From the NCBI GenBank assembly GCA_039714075.1, contig JBDLKA010000009.1, positions 1 through 60,776 of the forward strand: DNA of 60,776 nucleotides, written 5' to 3'. Below the pieces are notes generated by a model, which was not told where the DNA came from, did not search any database, and saw nothing but the letters and a program-made list of their open reading frames with translations. Within the stretch, counting starts at the first letter, position 1; each line of letters opens with the position of its first letter. Origin of the DNA: Candidatus Krumholzibacteriota bacterium (GTDB lineage Bacteria; Krumholzibacteriota; Krumholzibacteriia; LZORAL124-64-63). A program made the position numbers and the translations under genes. This document shows positions 33,485 through 37,626 of the stretch, piece by piece.

Positions 33485-33516
33485 AAATCCCCGGGGGTTT
33501 CTTCTCCCGGGGATTT
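33485..33516. terminator. Bidirectional terminator between tricorn and radical SAM genes
   Basis: AAATCCCCGGG/CCCGGGGATTT 11-bp stem flanked by A and T runs. Confidence 0.75.
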
Positions 33517-34723
33517 ATTTATGCACCTTCTCCCAATACCGCATTCTTTCCTTTATCGATTCCACCGTGACCGGAGGAGGATAAGGGTTCTCCTGGACAG
33601 GAAAATTCCCGCGGTATCGAATCGAAAGCAGATTGTAGGCGCACAGCAGGGCAGGGACTTTTTTCGGCGCCTTCCCCGGGCCGGACTCCAGCAGGGCCAG
33701 AGGGCAGATTTTGCATACGGCGGCCGCGGGGCATTCGCGGCACTTGCCGTATCTGGATTCCAGATCAGGAGCGGAAGAAAAAAGTTCGCTGTTCCGGATT
33801 CCTCCGGTGAAAGAGCGCCTCTTGTCCTCGAATTCCGGGTCGTCCGGCTGACCAAGATCGATATCCTCGGCGATTTCCTTCAAACGTCGATCCGAGGTAT
33901 CCATTCCCGATGGCGCAAACATCAGACAGCTGTACAGATGACCGTCAACATCCAGGACCGGATTGTGGCCCGCCAAGGCGGCGCAGGATCGTTTTCCCGG
34001 CTCCGGCGGGATGTCATCTTCCAGGTACTTGCGAAACGCAAGGAAGGGCACTTTGCCGGTTTTTTGAAGGTGCCGCTTTCCATGGTCGAATATCCGGGAG
34101 AACTGCCGGTCGAGGGGTGGCAACAGATCATCGTCCCAGCCGGGCACCCGGGACAAGGCGGGGGATACCCCGATCGCCTCAACTTTCCTGTCGACCAGAT
34201 ATTCCACCGAGTCCGCCAGATAAGGCAGGTTCTGGGGGGTTAAGGTCATCGTCACTCGACAATAGTCGGAAAACCATTGATCGTGTTGATCCTTCATCAA
34301 TCCGAGCAAACGGTCGAGTTTATCCCAGGTACCCTCACCCCTGTGGATCTGGGCCTCGCCCACTCCGTCGAAGCTCAGGTTCACAAAAACTGAATGATGG
34401 TCCAGGAATTCCAGCCGATCCGGATCGAGCAGGATTCCGTTGGTCAGAATCCGCAACTCAACCGGACGTCCCGATCGCCCGTTGCTCCGCACGTGACTTA
34501 TGGCCCTGCTCAGAAGGTCGAATTCCAGCAGGGGCTCCCCACCTGAAAAGATCAATTCCAATTCTCCCCCGGGTGCCGCCAAGGCCCAGTCCAGACTGCG
34601 GCGAAGATCCCCCCAGTCAAGGCGGCGGGCCGGTCCGGCCTGCCGGTAACAGTACCGACAGTCCAGATTGCACCCGGAGGTGAGCAGCACGGACAGTGAA
34701 CCAACCGGATCGATGTCGACCAT
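33515..34723 (-). CDS. Radical SAM protein with SPASM-type C-terminal domain
   Basis: CNLDCRYC, SGGEPLL, TNG, SFDG; C-terminal C...DGHLYSC...CRECPAAAVCKIC...C. Confidence 0.92.
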   Translation of the reverse strand: MVDIDPVGSLSVLLTSGCNLDCRYCYRQAGPARRLDWGDLRRSLDWALAAPGGELELIFSGGEPLLEFDLLSRAISHVRSNGRSGRPVELRILTNGILLDPDRLEFLDHHSVFVNLSFDGVGEAQIHRGEGTWDKLDRLLGLMKDQHDQWFSDYCRVTMTLTPQNLPYLADSVEYLVDRKVEAIGVSPALSRVPGWDDDLLPPLDRQFSRIFDHGKRHLQKTGKVPFLAFRKYLEDDIPPEPGKRSCAALAGHNPVLDVDGHLYSCLMFAPSGMDTSDRRLKEIAEDIDLGQPDDPEFEDKRRSFTGGIRNSELFSSAPDLESRYGKCRECPAAAVCKICPLALLESGPGKAPKKVPALLCAYNLLSIRYRGNFPVQENPYPPPVTVESIKERMRYWEKVHK

Positions 34724-34995
34724 TATTGGGATTCACCCGGTGTATCGGGAAGATCACCCAGGTTCCTCAGCCGGGTCGCCACTTCCGCGATCCAATCCAA
34801 AAAGGTGGCTTCCAAACCTCCCGGGGGTATACGCAACGGGTTTTTCTCGCATTCACCGGGATCAGGTGAATCAGGTCTGATAGGGACACATTTAAAGACA
34901 GGGTTTCCCAGGTTTGCTCCGGTCAACTGGGCCTTGATGTCGGTAAGTTCCCTGATTACCAGATCAATTCCGTGGATATAGGTGTTGAAGTTCAT
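34723..34995 (-). CDS. 90-aa orphan protein with two Cys; candidate radical SAM substrate or partner
   Basis: GGAGG RBS 8 nt upstream; its stop overlaps the radical SAM start (TAATG); fills the gap between the kinase and radical SAM genes. Confidence 0.8.
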   Translation of the reverse strand: MNFNTYIHGIDLVIRELTDIKAQLTGANLGNPVFKCVPIRPDSPDPGECEKNPLRIPPGGLEATFLDWIAEVATRLRNLGDLPDTPGESQ

Positions 34996-35016
34996 GGAAT
35001 CAACCTCCGGTTAAAG

Positions 35017-37626
35017 TTAAAAACGGGTATCTTCCTCGGCTTCCAGAATCCAGATGTCCCCTTTCATTTCATCGACCGTATGAACCATCAGGTTGCCCCA
35101 CCGATCGGGGCAGAAACTGGGGTATTCATTGTCCGGGCCCATCAACAGGGGGGGATCGAGGGGCGAGGCAGGGGCTCCGTCCAGGTGGACCCTGCGGATT
35201 TCATATTCGGGTCCATCCCATTTCCCACAGGCCCAGATTTCATTCCTGTCCCAGACCCAGCGCGCAATGTAGGTGTCCGCCTGGTGGGTGAGGGCCCTGG
35301 GGGGAGAGCTTCCGTCCACCGGAACCACCCACGTTTCCGTCGTACCCTCCTTAAGGGCTTGAAAAAGGATTTCTGATCCGTCGGGAGACCAGGCCGGGTA
35401 GTTGATGGAATGAACCAAGGGGGTGATCCGGGTGGGCGGACCGGCAGCCTCGCCGTCGACCACGGGTATGGTATAGACGGCCTGGATACCATCGCGGTCC
35501 GATGAAAAGGCCAGAGTGCGGCCGTCCGGCGACCAGATGGGGCTGACGTCGGCCGCGGGATGAGCGGTGATCCGGATCGGCCGGCCTGCCGGGATGGGAG
35601 CGATCCAGATATCCCGTTGCTGGATTTCCTGTTGAATAAGGTAGTAGGCGACCCAGCGGTTGTCGGGGGAGATGGCCGGGTGGGAAACCGACCCCTCCTG
35701 ATCGACGAGTCGCACCGAACTGCCCACAGGCTCTCCGTCCACGAGCTGTTGTACCCAGAGGTCGGCGTTGCTATTCCAGCGCATGGAGACGAATGCCAGC
35801 AGACTTCCGTCCGGGGACAGGCAGGGTTGGTAGTCCCGGGTGGGACTTTCCATGAGGGCCGTCCTGCCGTTCCGGAAATCGGTGAGCACGAGATCCCGGT
35901 GGCGGGTCTGGGTCGAATAGACAAGAGCGTTTCCCCCGCGGTCCAGCTCCGGATGGCTTTCAGGTCCGCTGCCGGGGGTCAATTTCAGGAGCTTGTCGCC
36001 TTTCGAATCCGTCCGCCACAGGGCCGAGTCCCCGTCGCGGAAGGATGCGAAATAAATGCACCGGCCGTCAGGGGAATAGACGGGATGGTTGTCGCCGCCT
36101 CCCCCTTCGGTCAGGGGCCGGGCCAATCCTCCCCTCGCGGGCACCACCCACAGGTTGTGGAAATCCCCGTAGCAGATGGTTTTGCTGTCGGGAGACCAGG
36201 CGGGGTAACGATGGCTCCAATAACCCCCCTTGTGTCCGGTAAGCCGGGTGGCGTTCGACGGGTCGTCCAGATCGGCAACGAAGATGCGTCCGCTGCCGTG
36301 ATCGTCCAGCCGGGTGAAGGCGATTTTCCGTCCATCGGGTGAAAGGGCGGGGTGAAGGGCATCCTCAAGCAGCAGGCTGGTCGCGCGGCCGGTCAGATCC
36401 GTCTTCCAAATACCGGGCCCACCCCGGCGGGTCGAGGTGAAAGCGATACCGCTGCCGTCGGCCAGCCAGCATGGTTCGCTGTCGTCGGCAGGATCATCGG
36501 TCAGGCGAACGGGGTCGCCGCCGGCCAGACCCACCCAGTAGATATCCAGGTTTCCTTCGGCGTTCGAGGTGAAGGCGATCAGATTCCCGTCGGGGGACAA
36601 TTTGGGCTCGGCTTCCCAAGCGGCCGAATGTGTCACCCTCCGGGTCGAACCCTTCTCGAAGGGGTTGGCCTCGATTTTCGGCCGGAACAGGGGGCCGAAA
36701 AGGATGGCCAGCAGGGTCAGGATCAATATGGCGCCAGTCCCCAGGGTCAGCCTGTTGCGGTATTTCCAGATCCACCCTTGAAGGGGAGGCAGAACGGTGG
36801 AAATTTCCCGGCGGAGGTTGCGCAGATCAACAAGCATCTCGCTCGCACTCTGGTACCGGTCCGCGGGGTTCTTGTTCAGAGATTTGTTGATGATCCGCCG
36901 CAGCTCAGGCCGGGCATCGGGCCGCAGGGTCCCCACGGGGGTCGGCTGGGAGTTGATGACGGCATATTGGATGGCATGCTCGTAATCCCCCTGGAAAGGG
37001 ACCCTCCCGGTGACCATCTGATAGAGGCAGGTGCCGAGAGACCACAGGTCGGTCCGGAAATCCACCTCCTGTCCCATGGCCTGCTCGGGCGACATGTAGG
37101 AGGCCGTGCCCACGACTCCGCCGGACCTGGTCACCCGTGTGGTATCAAGGCTGCGCGCAATGCCGAAGTCGAGGATCTTGACCTGGGACCGGCCGTTGTC
37201 CGGCGAGGCGACCATGAGGTTGGACGGTTTGATGTCCCGGTGGACGATACCCCGGTGGTGCGCCTGTTCCAGACCTTCGGCGATCTGGATGGCGATCAGG
37301 ACCGCGTCATCCAGATCCACCGGACCTTCGGCAATGACCTCACGAAGATTTTGTCCATCGACGAAATCCATGGCGATAAAAGCGCCGTCTTCATATTCCC
37401 CGTAGTCGAAAACCTTGCAGATGGAGGTGTGGTCCAGCTTGGCCGCGGCCCGGGCCTCGCGGGCGAAGCGTATCCGGTTGTCCGGATCGTACATGTATTC
37501 GGGATGGATGAACTTGAGGGCCACCGGAACGCCGAGGGTCAGATGTTCGGCTTTGTAGACCGCCCCACTGGATCCTGAGTCGATCTTGGCAAGCACCCGG
37601 TAATTGGAAACGGTCCGACCGATCAT
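35017..37626 (-). CDS. Membrane Ser/Thr (Hanks) kinase with extracytoplasmic PD40/TolB-like propeller
   Basis: VALKF, HRDIKPSN, DFG, GTASYMSPEQ, DLWSLG; one TM segment; many (W/L)SPDG repeats. Start 37626 (MIGRTV); 37638 is an alternative. Confidence 0.92.
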   Translation of the reverse strand: MIGRTVSNYRVLAKIDSGSSGAVYKAEHLTLGVPVALKFIHPEYMYDPDNRIRFAREARAAAKLDHTSICKVFDYGEYEDGAFIAMDFVDGQNLREVIAEGPVDLDDAVLIAIQIAEGLEQAHHRGIVHRDIKPSNLMVASPDNGRSQVKILDFGIARSLDTTRVTRSGGVVGTASYMSPEQAMGQEVDFRTDLWSLGTCLYQMVTGRVPFQGDYEHAIQYAVINSQPTPVGTLRPDARPELRRIINKSLNKNPADRYQSASEMLVDLRNLRREISTVLPPLQGWIWKYRNRLTLGTGAILILTLLAILFGPLFRPKIEANPFEKGSTRRVTHSAAWEAEPKLSPDGNLIAFTSNAEGNLDIYWVGLAGGDPVRLTDDPADDSEPCWLADGSGIAFTSTRRGGPGIWKTDLTGRATSLLLEDALHPALSPDGRKIAFTRLDDHGSGRIFVADLDDPSNATRLTGHKGGYWSHRYPAWSPDSKTICYGDFHNLWVVPARGGLARPLTEGGGGDNHPVYSPDGRCIYFASFRDGDSALWRTDSKGDKLLKLTPGSGPESHPELDRGGNALVYSTQTRHRDLVLTDFRNGRTALMESPTRDYQPCLSPDGSLLAFVSMRWNSNADLWVQQLVDGEPVGSSVRLVDQEGSVSHPAISPDNRWVAYYLIQQEIQQRDIWIAPIPAGRPIRITAHPAADVSPIWSPDGRTLAFSSDRDGIQAVYTIPVVDGEAAGPPTRITPLVHSINYPAWSPDGSEILFQALKEGTTETWVVPVDGSSPPRALTHQADTYIARWVWDRNEIWACGKWDGPEYEIRRVHLDGAPASPLDPPLLMGPDNEYPSFCPDRWGNLMVHTVDEMKGDIWILEAEEDTRF

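Follow-up and report, generated by a model that had tools for sequence, protein, structure and literature searches.

A 60,776-nucleotide stretch of DNA from a Candidatus Krumholzibacteriota bacterium (GenBank assembly GCA_039714075.1, contig JBDLKA010000009.1), referred to here as the window, carries three closely packed genes on its reverse strand: a receptor-like Ser/Thr kinase with a PD40 β-propeller, a small open reading frame (ORF), and a radical S-adenosylmethionine (SAM) enzyme of the SPASM type. The same trio recurs, with its gene order kept, in dozens of uncultured bacteria; it probably connects protein cross-linking with cell signaling in a way that has yet to be studied. The reading favored here, at a probability of roughly 45%, is that the radical SAM enzyme cross-links the small protein, which then works together with the kinase.

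The kinase gene (35017–37638, minus strand) encodes 873 residues and starts at 37638 or possibly at 37626, the latter being favored by the N-termini of homologs. It is followed by the small ORF (34723–34995, minus strand), encoding a 90-residue protein that is the presumed substrate, and by the radical SAM gene (33515–34723, minus strand), whose 402-residue product has a SPASM-type C-terminal domain and lacks an RRE, the recognition element of enzymes that act on peptides made by the ribosome and modified after translation (RiPPs). The kinase stop codon (TAA, 35019–35017) lies 21 nt from the small ORF, which is led by a GGAGG ribosome-binding site (35004–35008, minus strand) 8 nt 5′ of its ATG at 34995, and the TAA of the small ORF overlaps the ATG of the radical SAM gene as TAATG. 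The initial annotation of this DNA had described these three packed, same-strand genes and both of their junctions correctly, as judged by the ORF calls and the junction sequence, and it was also right that the unit contains no transporter or RRE gene.

The evidence that the three genes belong together comes from loci collected by a radical SAM profile search of named genome records and by whole-genome searches of relatives and of the phylum. At 35 of 37 loci with a full-length relative of the enzyme (28–40% identity), a kinase–PD40 gene is found upstream on the same strand, across a gap of 259–785 nt. One of the remaining two (L027) is cut by a contig end, and at the other (L011), the neighboring kinase is of another type and is encoded on the opposite strand. 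A second set of 20 loci included four duplicates of earlier ones, which were removed; of the 16 further distinct loci, 13 have the same arrangement, one (L181) retains only the last codons of the kinase at a contig edge, and two are cut. In total, the kinase–propeller gene lies upstream on the same strand at 48 of 53 distinct loci, the others being one with only the tail of the kinase gene, three cut by contig ends, and a single true exception. Every gap between kinase and radical SAM gene, at these 53 loci and in the window, holds a small ORF. The initial annotation had staked its proposal on homologs of the enzyme keeping both the small ORF and the kinase, and they do. The functional link that it suggested between a signaling kinase, a small protein and a radical SAM enzyme is thus well supported by gene order, orientation and genome-by-genome co-occurrence.

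The spacing of the genes is as regular as their order. The distance from the kinase stop to the start of the small ORF has a median of 24 nt and is at most 60 nt in 40 of 47 cases, while that from the small-ORF stop to the radical SAM start has a median of 13.5 nt and is at most 30 nt in 37 of 50, including 13 overlaps. An ORF of 62–151 codons led by a Shine–Dalgarno (SD) sequence is present at 49 of the 53 loci, and likewise in the window. At L005, L185 and L186, the SD-like site is weak or the contig is cut, and the small ORF of L180 is normal, with 103 codons, and lies in the frame of the kinase. Five loci (L010, L019, L177, L178 and L188) have tandem small ORFs; the tandem copies of L177 and L178 differ in length (100 vs. 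about 145 residues) and in the number of Cys residues (one vs. three).

Of the 24 loci with long flanks, at most four have any other gene family in common. A gene resembling Peptidase_M64 directly follows the radical SAM gene at four of these 24 (L014, L016, L019 and L020; 88.9 and 39.9 bits in the two that were tested) and could encode an optional processing enzyme in some lineages. At L011 (3604–4467, minus strand), the only evaluable locus without a kinase of the trio type, the upstream, opposite-strand Hanks-type kinase has a PD40 region with 24–26% identity. The divergence of the enzyme correlates moderately with that of the kinase in a mirror-tree comparison (r about 0.4), a figure that is confounded by shared ancestry and from which nothing was inferred. 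A scan of metagenome contigs was dominated by generic radical SAM proteins recovered through the cluster motif; the 80 loci kept from it, all partial and at 22–39% identity, were not used.

Within the phylum, searches of 208 genomes at E ≤ 1e-40 found the enzyme in 27, the propeller in 30 and both in 25. Two more genomes (G032 and G140) have a weaker radical SAM match beside the propeller. In the two genomes with only the enzyme (G108 and G177), the gene sits at the start of a contig, and in two with only the propeller (G009 and G151), the locus is cut by contig ends. The distribution of the trio is patchy, both in the phylum (27 of 208 genomes) and in the window's genus, in which two of eight genomes have the full trio, one has only the kinase, and in five it was not found (these genomes being 76–93% complete). 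One genome (G022) has two copies of the trio, L086 on contig C1 and L092 on contig C19. In the C19 copy, the radical SAM match is split (query residues 6–272 and 294–398) within an open frame of 1132 codons, which may be a frameshift or an assembly artifact, and in the C1 copy, the propeller has one in-frame TAA.

The family is not confined to one genome or group. The enzyme has relatives in 271 clusters at 50% identity (E ≤ 1e-30, 1.84 billion representative proteins), with labels from several phyla, and the records that carry the trio are labeled in the majority as Acidobacteriota (including Vicinamibacterales and Thermoanaerobaculia), along with Eisenbacteria/Eiseniibacteriota, Candidatus Krumholzibacteriia and one Microthrixaceae. 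L026, labeled Candidatus Krumholzibacteriia, is identical in sequence to L191 and belongs to the window's family; L028, identical in sequence to L189, carries the label Fibrobacteraceae, which conflicts with its placement in the window's family.

By its pattern of substitution, the small ORF is a coding gene, because its dN/dS against the copy from the same genus (L089) is 0.56. The corresponding values are 0.24 for the propeller and 0.17 for the radical SAM enzyme, at similar dS (0.65–0.82) and with no frame breaks. The small protein changes much faster than its neighbors: identity between the window and L089 is 47% for the small ORF, 73% for the propeller and 82% for the enzyme. This divergence is unevenly spread along the small protein, with 19 of 27 residues identical in the N-terminal helix, 11 of 32 in the Cys region and 6 of 19 in the C-terminal helix. 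A conserved, recognition-like region and a variable Cys region beside a modifying enzyme are also what is seen in RiPP clusters; such clusters would also have a leader peptidase and/or an exporter for release of a short mature peptide, and usually an RRE, whereas here neither gene is conserved and the radical SAM enzyme has no RRE.

Over the whole family, the divergence is near-total. BLAST at E ≤ 1e-3 places 55 non-redundant small ORFs in 35 groups, 27 of which are singletons. What they share is Cys, the sole residue universal to them: at least one is present in 55 of 55, with 144 Cys in 5742 residues (2.5%). Pro and Gly are enriched around these Cys residues, in several ORFs a short Cys motif occurs two or three times in a row of repeats, and six ORFs end in Cys. 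No Pfam family, PqqD included, matched any of the 55, and NCBIfam gave no match except one at chance level (15.8 bits vs. a cut-off of 259). The window's small ORF found only itself among 5.8 billion clusters in a word-indexed search, and no usable match in the ESM Atlas.

An AlphaFold2 model of the window's small protein, built from four sequences, predicts a helix at residues 3–27, a β-hairpin (34–38/49–53) and a second helix at 60–81 (pLDDT 73.6, pTM 0.61). Both Cys residues, Cys36 and Cys49, would lie on the predicted hairpin. A Foldseek search of the model against the Protein Data Bank (PDB) gave no match at E ≤ 0.001. Within the four-member subgroup that includes the window, C36 and P38 are invariant, even as two of the members are only 24% identical.

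Many of the other small proteins have in common a helix module of about 36 residues, for which a model was made from one BLAST cluster of six ORFs. Applied to the other clusters, the model scores 13 of 49 ORFs above the 99th percentile of shuffled sequences and nine above the shuffle maximum. Eighteen ORFs pass in the first round and 24 of 55 after iteration (above the 99.5th percentile of shuffles). The conserved positions of the module are Thr (17 of 21), Leu (22 of 24), Glu (17 of 24) and Trp (13 of 24), and it precedes the Cys region in some ORFs and follows it in others. The Thr is a candidate phosphorylation site in the relatives that carry the module. The window's small ORF shares only the architecture with these proteins.

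The radical SAM enzyme scores 60.8 bits against PF04055 (cut-off 29.5), and its C18-x3-C22-x2-C25 motif is invariant in 19 relatives. Equally invariant in the 19 is a seven-Cys pattern, C247-x13-G261-x4-C266, C328-x2-C331-x5-C337-x2-C340, C361, which points to a SPASM domain, with a last spacing of x2 rather than the x3 of the usual pattern (C-x9-15-G-x4-C … C-x2-C-x5-C-x3-C … C), by which SPASM enzymes bind two auxiliary clusters. The predicted full-length fold also matches SPASM enzymes over about 390 columns. The identity proposed in the initial annotation, that of a radical SAM/SPASM enzyme, therefore stands on the radical SAM score, the Cys pattern and the fold; Pfam's own SPASM model speaks against it, giving no match at E ≤ 0.01.

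No NCBIfam family cut-off is reached by the enzyme. The best match is PapB (NF047865; 114 bits vs. a cut-off of 340), followed by several peptide maturases. The SCIFF maturase/CteB model (TIGR03974) gives 56.9 bits vs. 425, QhpD (TIGR03906) 51.2 bits vs. 453, and the anaerobic sulfatase-maturating enzyme, anSME (TIGR03942), 49 bits vs. 349. Since all of these are below cut-off, no curated model describes this enzyme family. Across its 19 members, the top two models are PapB (best E 2.7e-46) and QhpD (9.6e-32). Context sets the family apart as well: the small ORFs are not SCIFF-like (a SCIFF substrate has six Cys in 45 residues), the loci of the family have no neighbor in common beyond the kinase, and the unit has no sulfatase gene. 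The Joint Genome Institute (JGI) annotation of many homologs is "AslB". Three longer homologs (P0130, P0178 and P0171) have no informative fused domain.

The closest solved chain is CteB (PDB 5WGG; E 3.3e-15, 59 bits). Residue 9 of the enzyme aligns with residue 98 of CteB, which leaves no room for an N-terminal recognition domain, and the enzyme thus has no RRE. Its AlphaFold2 model (pLDDT 86) matches, in order, CteB, anSMEcpe, ChlB, TigE and SuiB, with template-modeling (TM) scores of 0.5–0.7. By predicted fold, it would be a SPASM enzyme that modifies peptides or proteins, which does not settle its chemistry. PapB, QhpD and CteB all form Cys thioethers. Because these families are the nearest by sequence and Cys is universal in the small ORFs, thioether formation on Cys is the most likely chemistry.

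The C-terminal tail of the enzyme (about residues 375–402; window 33515–33640), after the last SPASM Cys, has a predicted helix at 387–399. By eye, this helix resembles the start of the small-ORF helix module (Val-Thr followed, at helical spacing, by Ile, Arg and Trp), which may be due to chance; the pattern is kept only among the closest relatives of the enzyme.

The kinase has the layout of a receptor. A cytoplasmic Hanks-type Ser/Thr kinase domain (residues 1–290; 36769–37638, minus strand) is followed by a single putative membrane segment (about residues 297–320; 36679–36750, minus strand), read by eye from the hydrophobic stretch in the translation rather than from a predictor, and by an extracytoplasmic PD40 β-propeller region (residues 325–873; 35020–36666, minus strand). 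Pfam gives 159.3 bits for Pkinase (cut-off 31.7; residues 13–265), 193.6 bits for PD40 in six stretches, and 59.7 bits for DPPIV_N. The kinase–membrane segment–PD40 architecture that the initial annotation had called receptor-like is confirmed by these matches and the hydrophobic stretch. Among 23 trio kinases, there is no variation at K42, E61, H133, D135, N140, D157-F158-G159, T178 and P184-E185, and the same positions are at least 90% kept in a further kinase alignment. The kinase domain thus belongs to the Hanks type by score and by catalytic residues, and since the latter are invariant in the 23, the trio kinases are probably active. Conservation along the protein is lowest in the membrane segment. 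No Cys is invariant in the trio kinases, the best-kept one being present in 83%, which argues against the kinase as the Cys donor of a cross-link.

The two halves of the protein group differently in trees. That the trio kinases form one clade by their kinase domain had been expected and was ruled out. In a kinase-domain tree of the 23 trio kinases and 21 paralogs from the window's genome, they are not one group: seven changes are needed, at least three of which are forced by well-supported branches, and a single group is found in 0% of bootstrap trees. By contrast, the ectodomains of the same 23 kinases form one clade against 12 PD40 paralogs from the same genome, with support of 100/99 and in 100% of 200 bootstrap trees; this outgroup consists only of paralogs of the window's genome, several of them on long branches. 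Propeller relatives at other loci are 33–44% identical over about 540 residues. Because the propeller is one clade and the kinase domain is not, it is the propeller, by these trees, that defines the kinase of the trio.

The ectodomain falls outside the named families to which it was compared. TolB (TIGR02800) gives 240.8 bits over four repeat stretches against a cut-off of 343, and the TolB-like region is fused to a kinase outside any tol-pal locus. The PknB/Stk1 PASTA kinase model (NF033483) gives 298.7 bits against a cut-off of 450 and covers only the kinase domain (residues 12–277), the ectodomain being PD40. Besides the trio kinase, the window's genome has about 21 Hanks-type kinases whose C-terminal regions are long (ORFs of 557–993 codons), two of which are adjacent on contig C4 and near-identical in the kinase domain.

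In the mechanism that is favored here, the trio would be a self-contained three-gene operon, in which a cytoplasmic, RRE-less radical SAM/SPASM enzyme acts on Cys of the small protein encoded just upstream. The product would most likely be an intramolecular Cys thioether, as made by PapB, QhpD and CteB; instead of being released as a peptide, it would remain a small folded protein of the cytoplasm. Such a location is probable because there is no conserved protease or exporter and the small ORFs have no signal peptide: an apolar run resembling one (at least 12 residues within the first 40) occurs in 0 of 55. The modified small protein would then meet the cytoplasmic kinase domain as a substrate or regulator, and the small protein's state would in this way be linked to a signal received by the propeller, the periplasmic and family-specific part of the kinase.

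Several observations weigh against this mechanism. Within the kinase, it is the periplasmic propeller and not the cytoplasmic kinase domain that is trio-specific, a better fit to a periplasmic partner than to a cytoplasmic one. Only 24 of the 55 small ORFs contain the Thr-bearing helix module, and the window's does not (score −1.5). The subgroup of the window has no conserved acidic residue near the Cys that could serve as an acceptor. The chemistry might not be that of the thioether enzymes, since no family cut-off is reached, PapB included, and anSME, which converts Cys to formylglycine, is equally close in fold (TM 0.66–0.69). Finally, the partnership is not absolute: L011 has a small ORF and a radical SAM gene beside a different kinase on the other strand, and in G001, a genome of the window's genus, the kinase is intact and the other two genes are missing.

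The nature of the ectodomain suggests an alternative, unlikely overall, in which the cross-linked small protein, whole or as a fragment, would exit the cytoplasm to bind the propeller of its co-encoded kinase as a ligand or co-receptor, forming an autocrine, strain-specific pair. Location is where this differs from the favored mechanism: the absence of a signal peptide, exporter and protease favors the cytoplasm, and the trio-specific ectodomain favors the periplasm. Export would agree with the fact that the single-clade part of the kinase is the ectodomain and not the kinase domain, with the genome-by-genome co-occurrence of propeller and enzyme, and with the hypervariability of the small ORF, as expected of a specificity determinant. 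QhpD, whose NCBIfam model ranks second for each of the 19 family members, acts on a protein, QhpC, that is afterwards exported and joins a periplasmic enzyme, and the Peptidase_M64 gene found after the enzyme at four of the 24 long-flank loci could fit as well. However, the unit has no conserved exporter or leader peptidase, the small ORFs lack apolar leader-like runs, and their products are proteins of 62–151 residues with predicted helices rather than short peptides. The retention of the receptor in G001 without the gene for its presumed ligand also counts against such a pair. By analogy, and as a rather doubtful extension, the trio might be a counterpart of the peptide-hormone/receptor-kinase pairs of plants, with all or part of the cross-linked small protein serving as the cognate, rapidly diversifying ligand or co-receptor of the dedicated propeller ectodomain, the part of the kinase that is inherited with the trio. 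If so, Krumholzibacteriota, Acidobacteriota and Eisenbacteria would have a form of strain-specific self-signaling, for recognition of kin or of a quorum.

It is also rather improbable that the enzyme acts on the same substrate with some chemistry other than thioether formation: formylglycine formation as by anSME, a C–C cross-link, an epimerization or another radical modification. The predicted structure allows it, since anSMEcpe is as good a match to the model as CteB (TMq 0.66–0.69, TMt 0.72–0.74) and, like the enzyme of the trio, lacks an RRE. The window's small ORF, and no other, carries the sequence C-V-P-I-R, which conforms to the minimal sulfatase motif C-x-P-x-R and includes the two invariant residues of the subgroup, C36 and P38. 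Cyclophane, cyclopropyl and epimerase families are found among the weak matches of the enzyme. The three relatives do not retain the motif's Arg, however, and the thioether enzymes score higher (PapB 114 and CteB 59 bits vs. 49 and 35 bits for anSME). The fact that no residue except Cys is common to all of the small ORFs likewise speaks for a chemistry centered on Cys thioethers.

The G001 locus bears on a further possibility, that the coupling is indirect. G001 has an intact kinase of 871 residues, with a propeller 73% and a kinase domain 85% identical to those of the window. The small ORF and the radical SAM gene are both missing, and no relative of the enzyme is found elsewhere in this genome, which is 81% complete. 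After the kinase, across 84 nt, comes the convergent, tricorn-like gene that is its neighbor in the window, too. In this region (L192, G001:C306, 6180–6330, compared with window 33481–35019), all that separates the two is what is left of the small ORF's ribosome-binding region, along with the terminator hairpin known from the window. The clean absence of both genes represents a natural deletion in G001 or, conversely, an insertion in the lineage of the window. Because both genes are absent together, the small ORF and the radical SAM gene behave as one unit, and the kinase can persist without them, having no strict need of either.

The absence of this block between an SD remnant and a terminator, with the kinase and the convergent neighbor left in place, means that the small ORF–radical SAM pair behaves as an insertable or deletable unit. 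The kinase might then not touch the small protein and only control the operon or the enzyme, for instance through phosphorylation of the enzyme or of a distant regulator, or the pair might simply have landed downstream of a kinase gene and be transcribed along with it. Such indirect coupling is somewhat harder still to accept than a different chemistry, since the same propeller clade lies upstream at 48 of 53 loci from several phyla. Moreover, this propeller type is not found in the phylum away from the enzyme except at contig edges and in G001, and, given about 21 Hanks paralogs in the window's own genome alone, it is unlikely that insertion by chance would have favored a single kinase type.

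That the trio is a conflict or defense module, with the kinase as sensor and the small protein as a diversifying effector, is very improbable. The patchy distribution and the hypervariable small protein would suit such a role, and the kinase domain matches the PADLOC models PD-T4-6 and mad6. These matches cover only the generic kinase fold (residues 5–280), though, and PADLOC gives no match for the small ORF and only a weak viperin-core match for the enzyme. No mobile-element or defense genes are common to the flanks. To our knowledge, a periplasmic propeller sensor is not used by known kinase defense systems. Lastly, the idea that the gap is a mere spacer, for which one could cite the lack of any family or database relative of the window's small ORF, can be dismissed in view of an open frame kept at all 53 loci through near-total sequence turnover and SD-led at 49, a dN/dS of 0.56 without frame breaks, starts and stops coupled to those of the flanking genes, a pTM of 0.61 from only four sequences, and a module shared by 24 of the 55 ORFs.

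Radical SAM/SPASM enzymes that modify an adjacent peptide are well known, and the trio resembles several such systems in part. The PapB and CteB maturases of ranthipeptides and SCIFF peptides have the same radical SAM core and seven-Cys SPASM domain, and they are the best matches of the enzyme by profile hidden Markov model and by fold. They, too, act on the product of an adjacent, Cys-bearing gene, sometimes with repeated Cys motifs. The trio differs from them in its low scores (114 vs. 340 and 57 vs. 425), the lack of an N-terminal RRE, substrates of 62–151 residues with helices, the absence of a protease or exporter, and the linked receptor kinase (48 of 53 loci). Another such system is QhpD/QhpC of quinohemoprotein amine dehydrogenase, in which a radical SAM/SPASM enzyme cross-links Cys in a small protein, rather than a short peptide, of the same operon. 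The final partner of QhpC includes a periplasmic β-propeller subunit. In the trio, the score is far from the cut-off for QhpD (51 vs. 453 bits), the unit has no homologs of QhpA, B, E, F or G, there are no conserved Asp/Glu acceptors or Trp, and the propeller is the ectodomain of the kinase. According to the published account, QhpC is cross-linked by QhpD in the cytoplasm, after which its leader is cleaved and it is exported by an ABC transporter (PMC7876137).

A second protein-sized substrate is CrpA of Methanococcus voltae, an adjacent, Cys-rich protein on which the SPASM radical SAM enzyme CrpC has been shown experimentally to install ranthionine cross-links, as stated in the abstract (PMC13692751). 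Compared by description only, CrpC differs from the enzyme of the trio in having a predicted RRE and in being archaeal, and the abstract does not mention a kinase (PMC13692751). QhpD/QhpC and, by that abstract, CrpC/CrpA (PMC13692751) are thus precedents for substrates of protein size. Like the enzyme of the trio, anSME (PDB 4K36–4K39) is an RRE-less SPASM enzyme, and it acts on a protein Cys in C-x-P-x-R, a context to which the window's C-V-P-I-R may be compared. Here, the differences are the score (49 vs. 349 bits), the lack of a sulfatase gene in the unit, and an Arg that relatives do not conserve.

Kinase folds have been tied to peptide modification before. The TOMM kinase/cyclase fusion (TIGR03903), the class III/IV lanthipeptide enzymes LanKC/LanL, and HprK-like kinases serve peptide-modification pathways, in which respect they resemble the trio kinase. 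The latter is below cut-off for all of them (138 vs. 706, 94 vs. 650 and 63 vs. 575 bits). These kinases are also soluble or fused to the modifying enzyme, whereas that of the trio is a membrane receptor with a propeller. Closer in architecture are PknB, with its PASTA repeats, and PknD, with an NHL propeller, which combine a kinase, one membrane segment and extracellular repeats; the best model for the trio's kinase domain is PknB-like. The trio kinase differs from them in its score, below the cut-off of 450, and in its distinct PD40 clade, with no PASTA or NHL repeats. We know of no receptor kinase of the PknB/PknD type that is operon-linked to a radical SAM enzyme, and literature searches turned up none.

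The initial annotation had not recognized the combination of genes, and it proved unfamiliar to the databases as well: no Pfam or NCBIfam family covers it, and no description of a kinase–radical SAM–small ORF trio was found in the open literature searched, which excluded subscription-only papers and supplements. One paper that these searches did bring up, PMC7159879, concerns other systems. What appears to be undescribed is a receptor Hanks-type kinase, with a propeller clade of its own, that is fixed to hypervariable helix-plus-Cys small proteins and to an RRE-less radical SAM enzyme. If the small protein is a substrate, regulator or ligand of the kinase, the trio would provide a defined, genetically paired partner for a Hanks-type kinase, which is rare. 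If it is a partner of the kinase, it would also add a further case of radical cross-linking on a protein-sized substrate, and one of substrate recognition independent of an RRE. As a compact, self-contained unit of three genes, the trio makes these questions open to direct co-expression tests.

The boundaries of the unit in the window are of unequal quality. Directly 3′ of the radical SAM stop is an intrinsic terminator, a G+C hairpin with a T-run (33481–33516, minus strand), whose fold has z = −3.4, with 0 of 200 shuffles equally stable. The upstream boundary is a hairpin and T-rich tract (37717–37755, minus strand) after the upstream prolyl-oligopeptidase gene. Its centroid fold keeps the G+C stem, and the whole 81-nt stretch has z = −1.2, indistinguishable from shuffles. 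The claim that the unit is bounded by terminators thus holds for its downstream end and is not borne out by fold stability at its upstream end. A consensus terminator scan of the window listed neither hairpin, and its total (7 vs. 4.6 expected) was not above that of shuffles. A match to a σ70-like promoter, TGGTCA-17-TAGAAT (37677–37705, minus strand), precedes the kinase gene; it is a consensus match only, and promoter-like sites are no more common than in shuffles (one found, 1.4 expected).

The unit is flanked by two genes for β-propeller peptidases. Upstream is the prolyl oligopeptidase (37781–39988, minus strand), with an N-terminal hydrophobic leader, and downstream is the convergent gene for a tricorn-like S41 protease with PD40 repeats (30137–33463, plus strand). 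At other loci, neither gene is a regular neighbor: the oligopeptidase recurs at L024 only, and the tricorn-like gene in G001. Since they are not conserved at other loci, both are probably unrelated to the trio. An Rfam scan of the window found no family match. Positions 10001–12000 have a G+C content of 0.51, compared with about 0.62 elsewhere, and contain only ORFs of 159–244 codons. No RNA run is listed among the sequencing runs that match the window; those listed are two DNA runs from one marine-metagenome study, one of them possibly its source.

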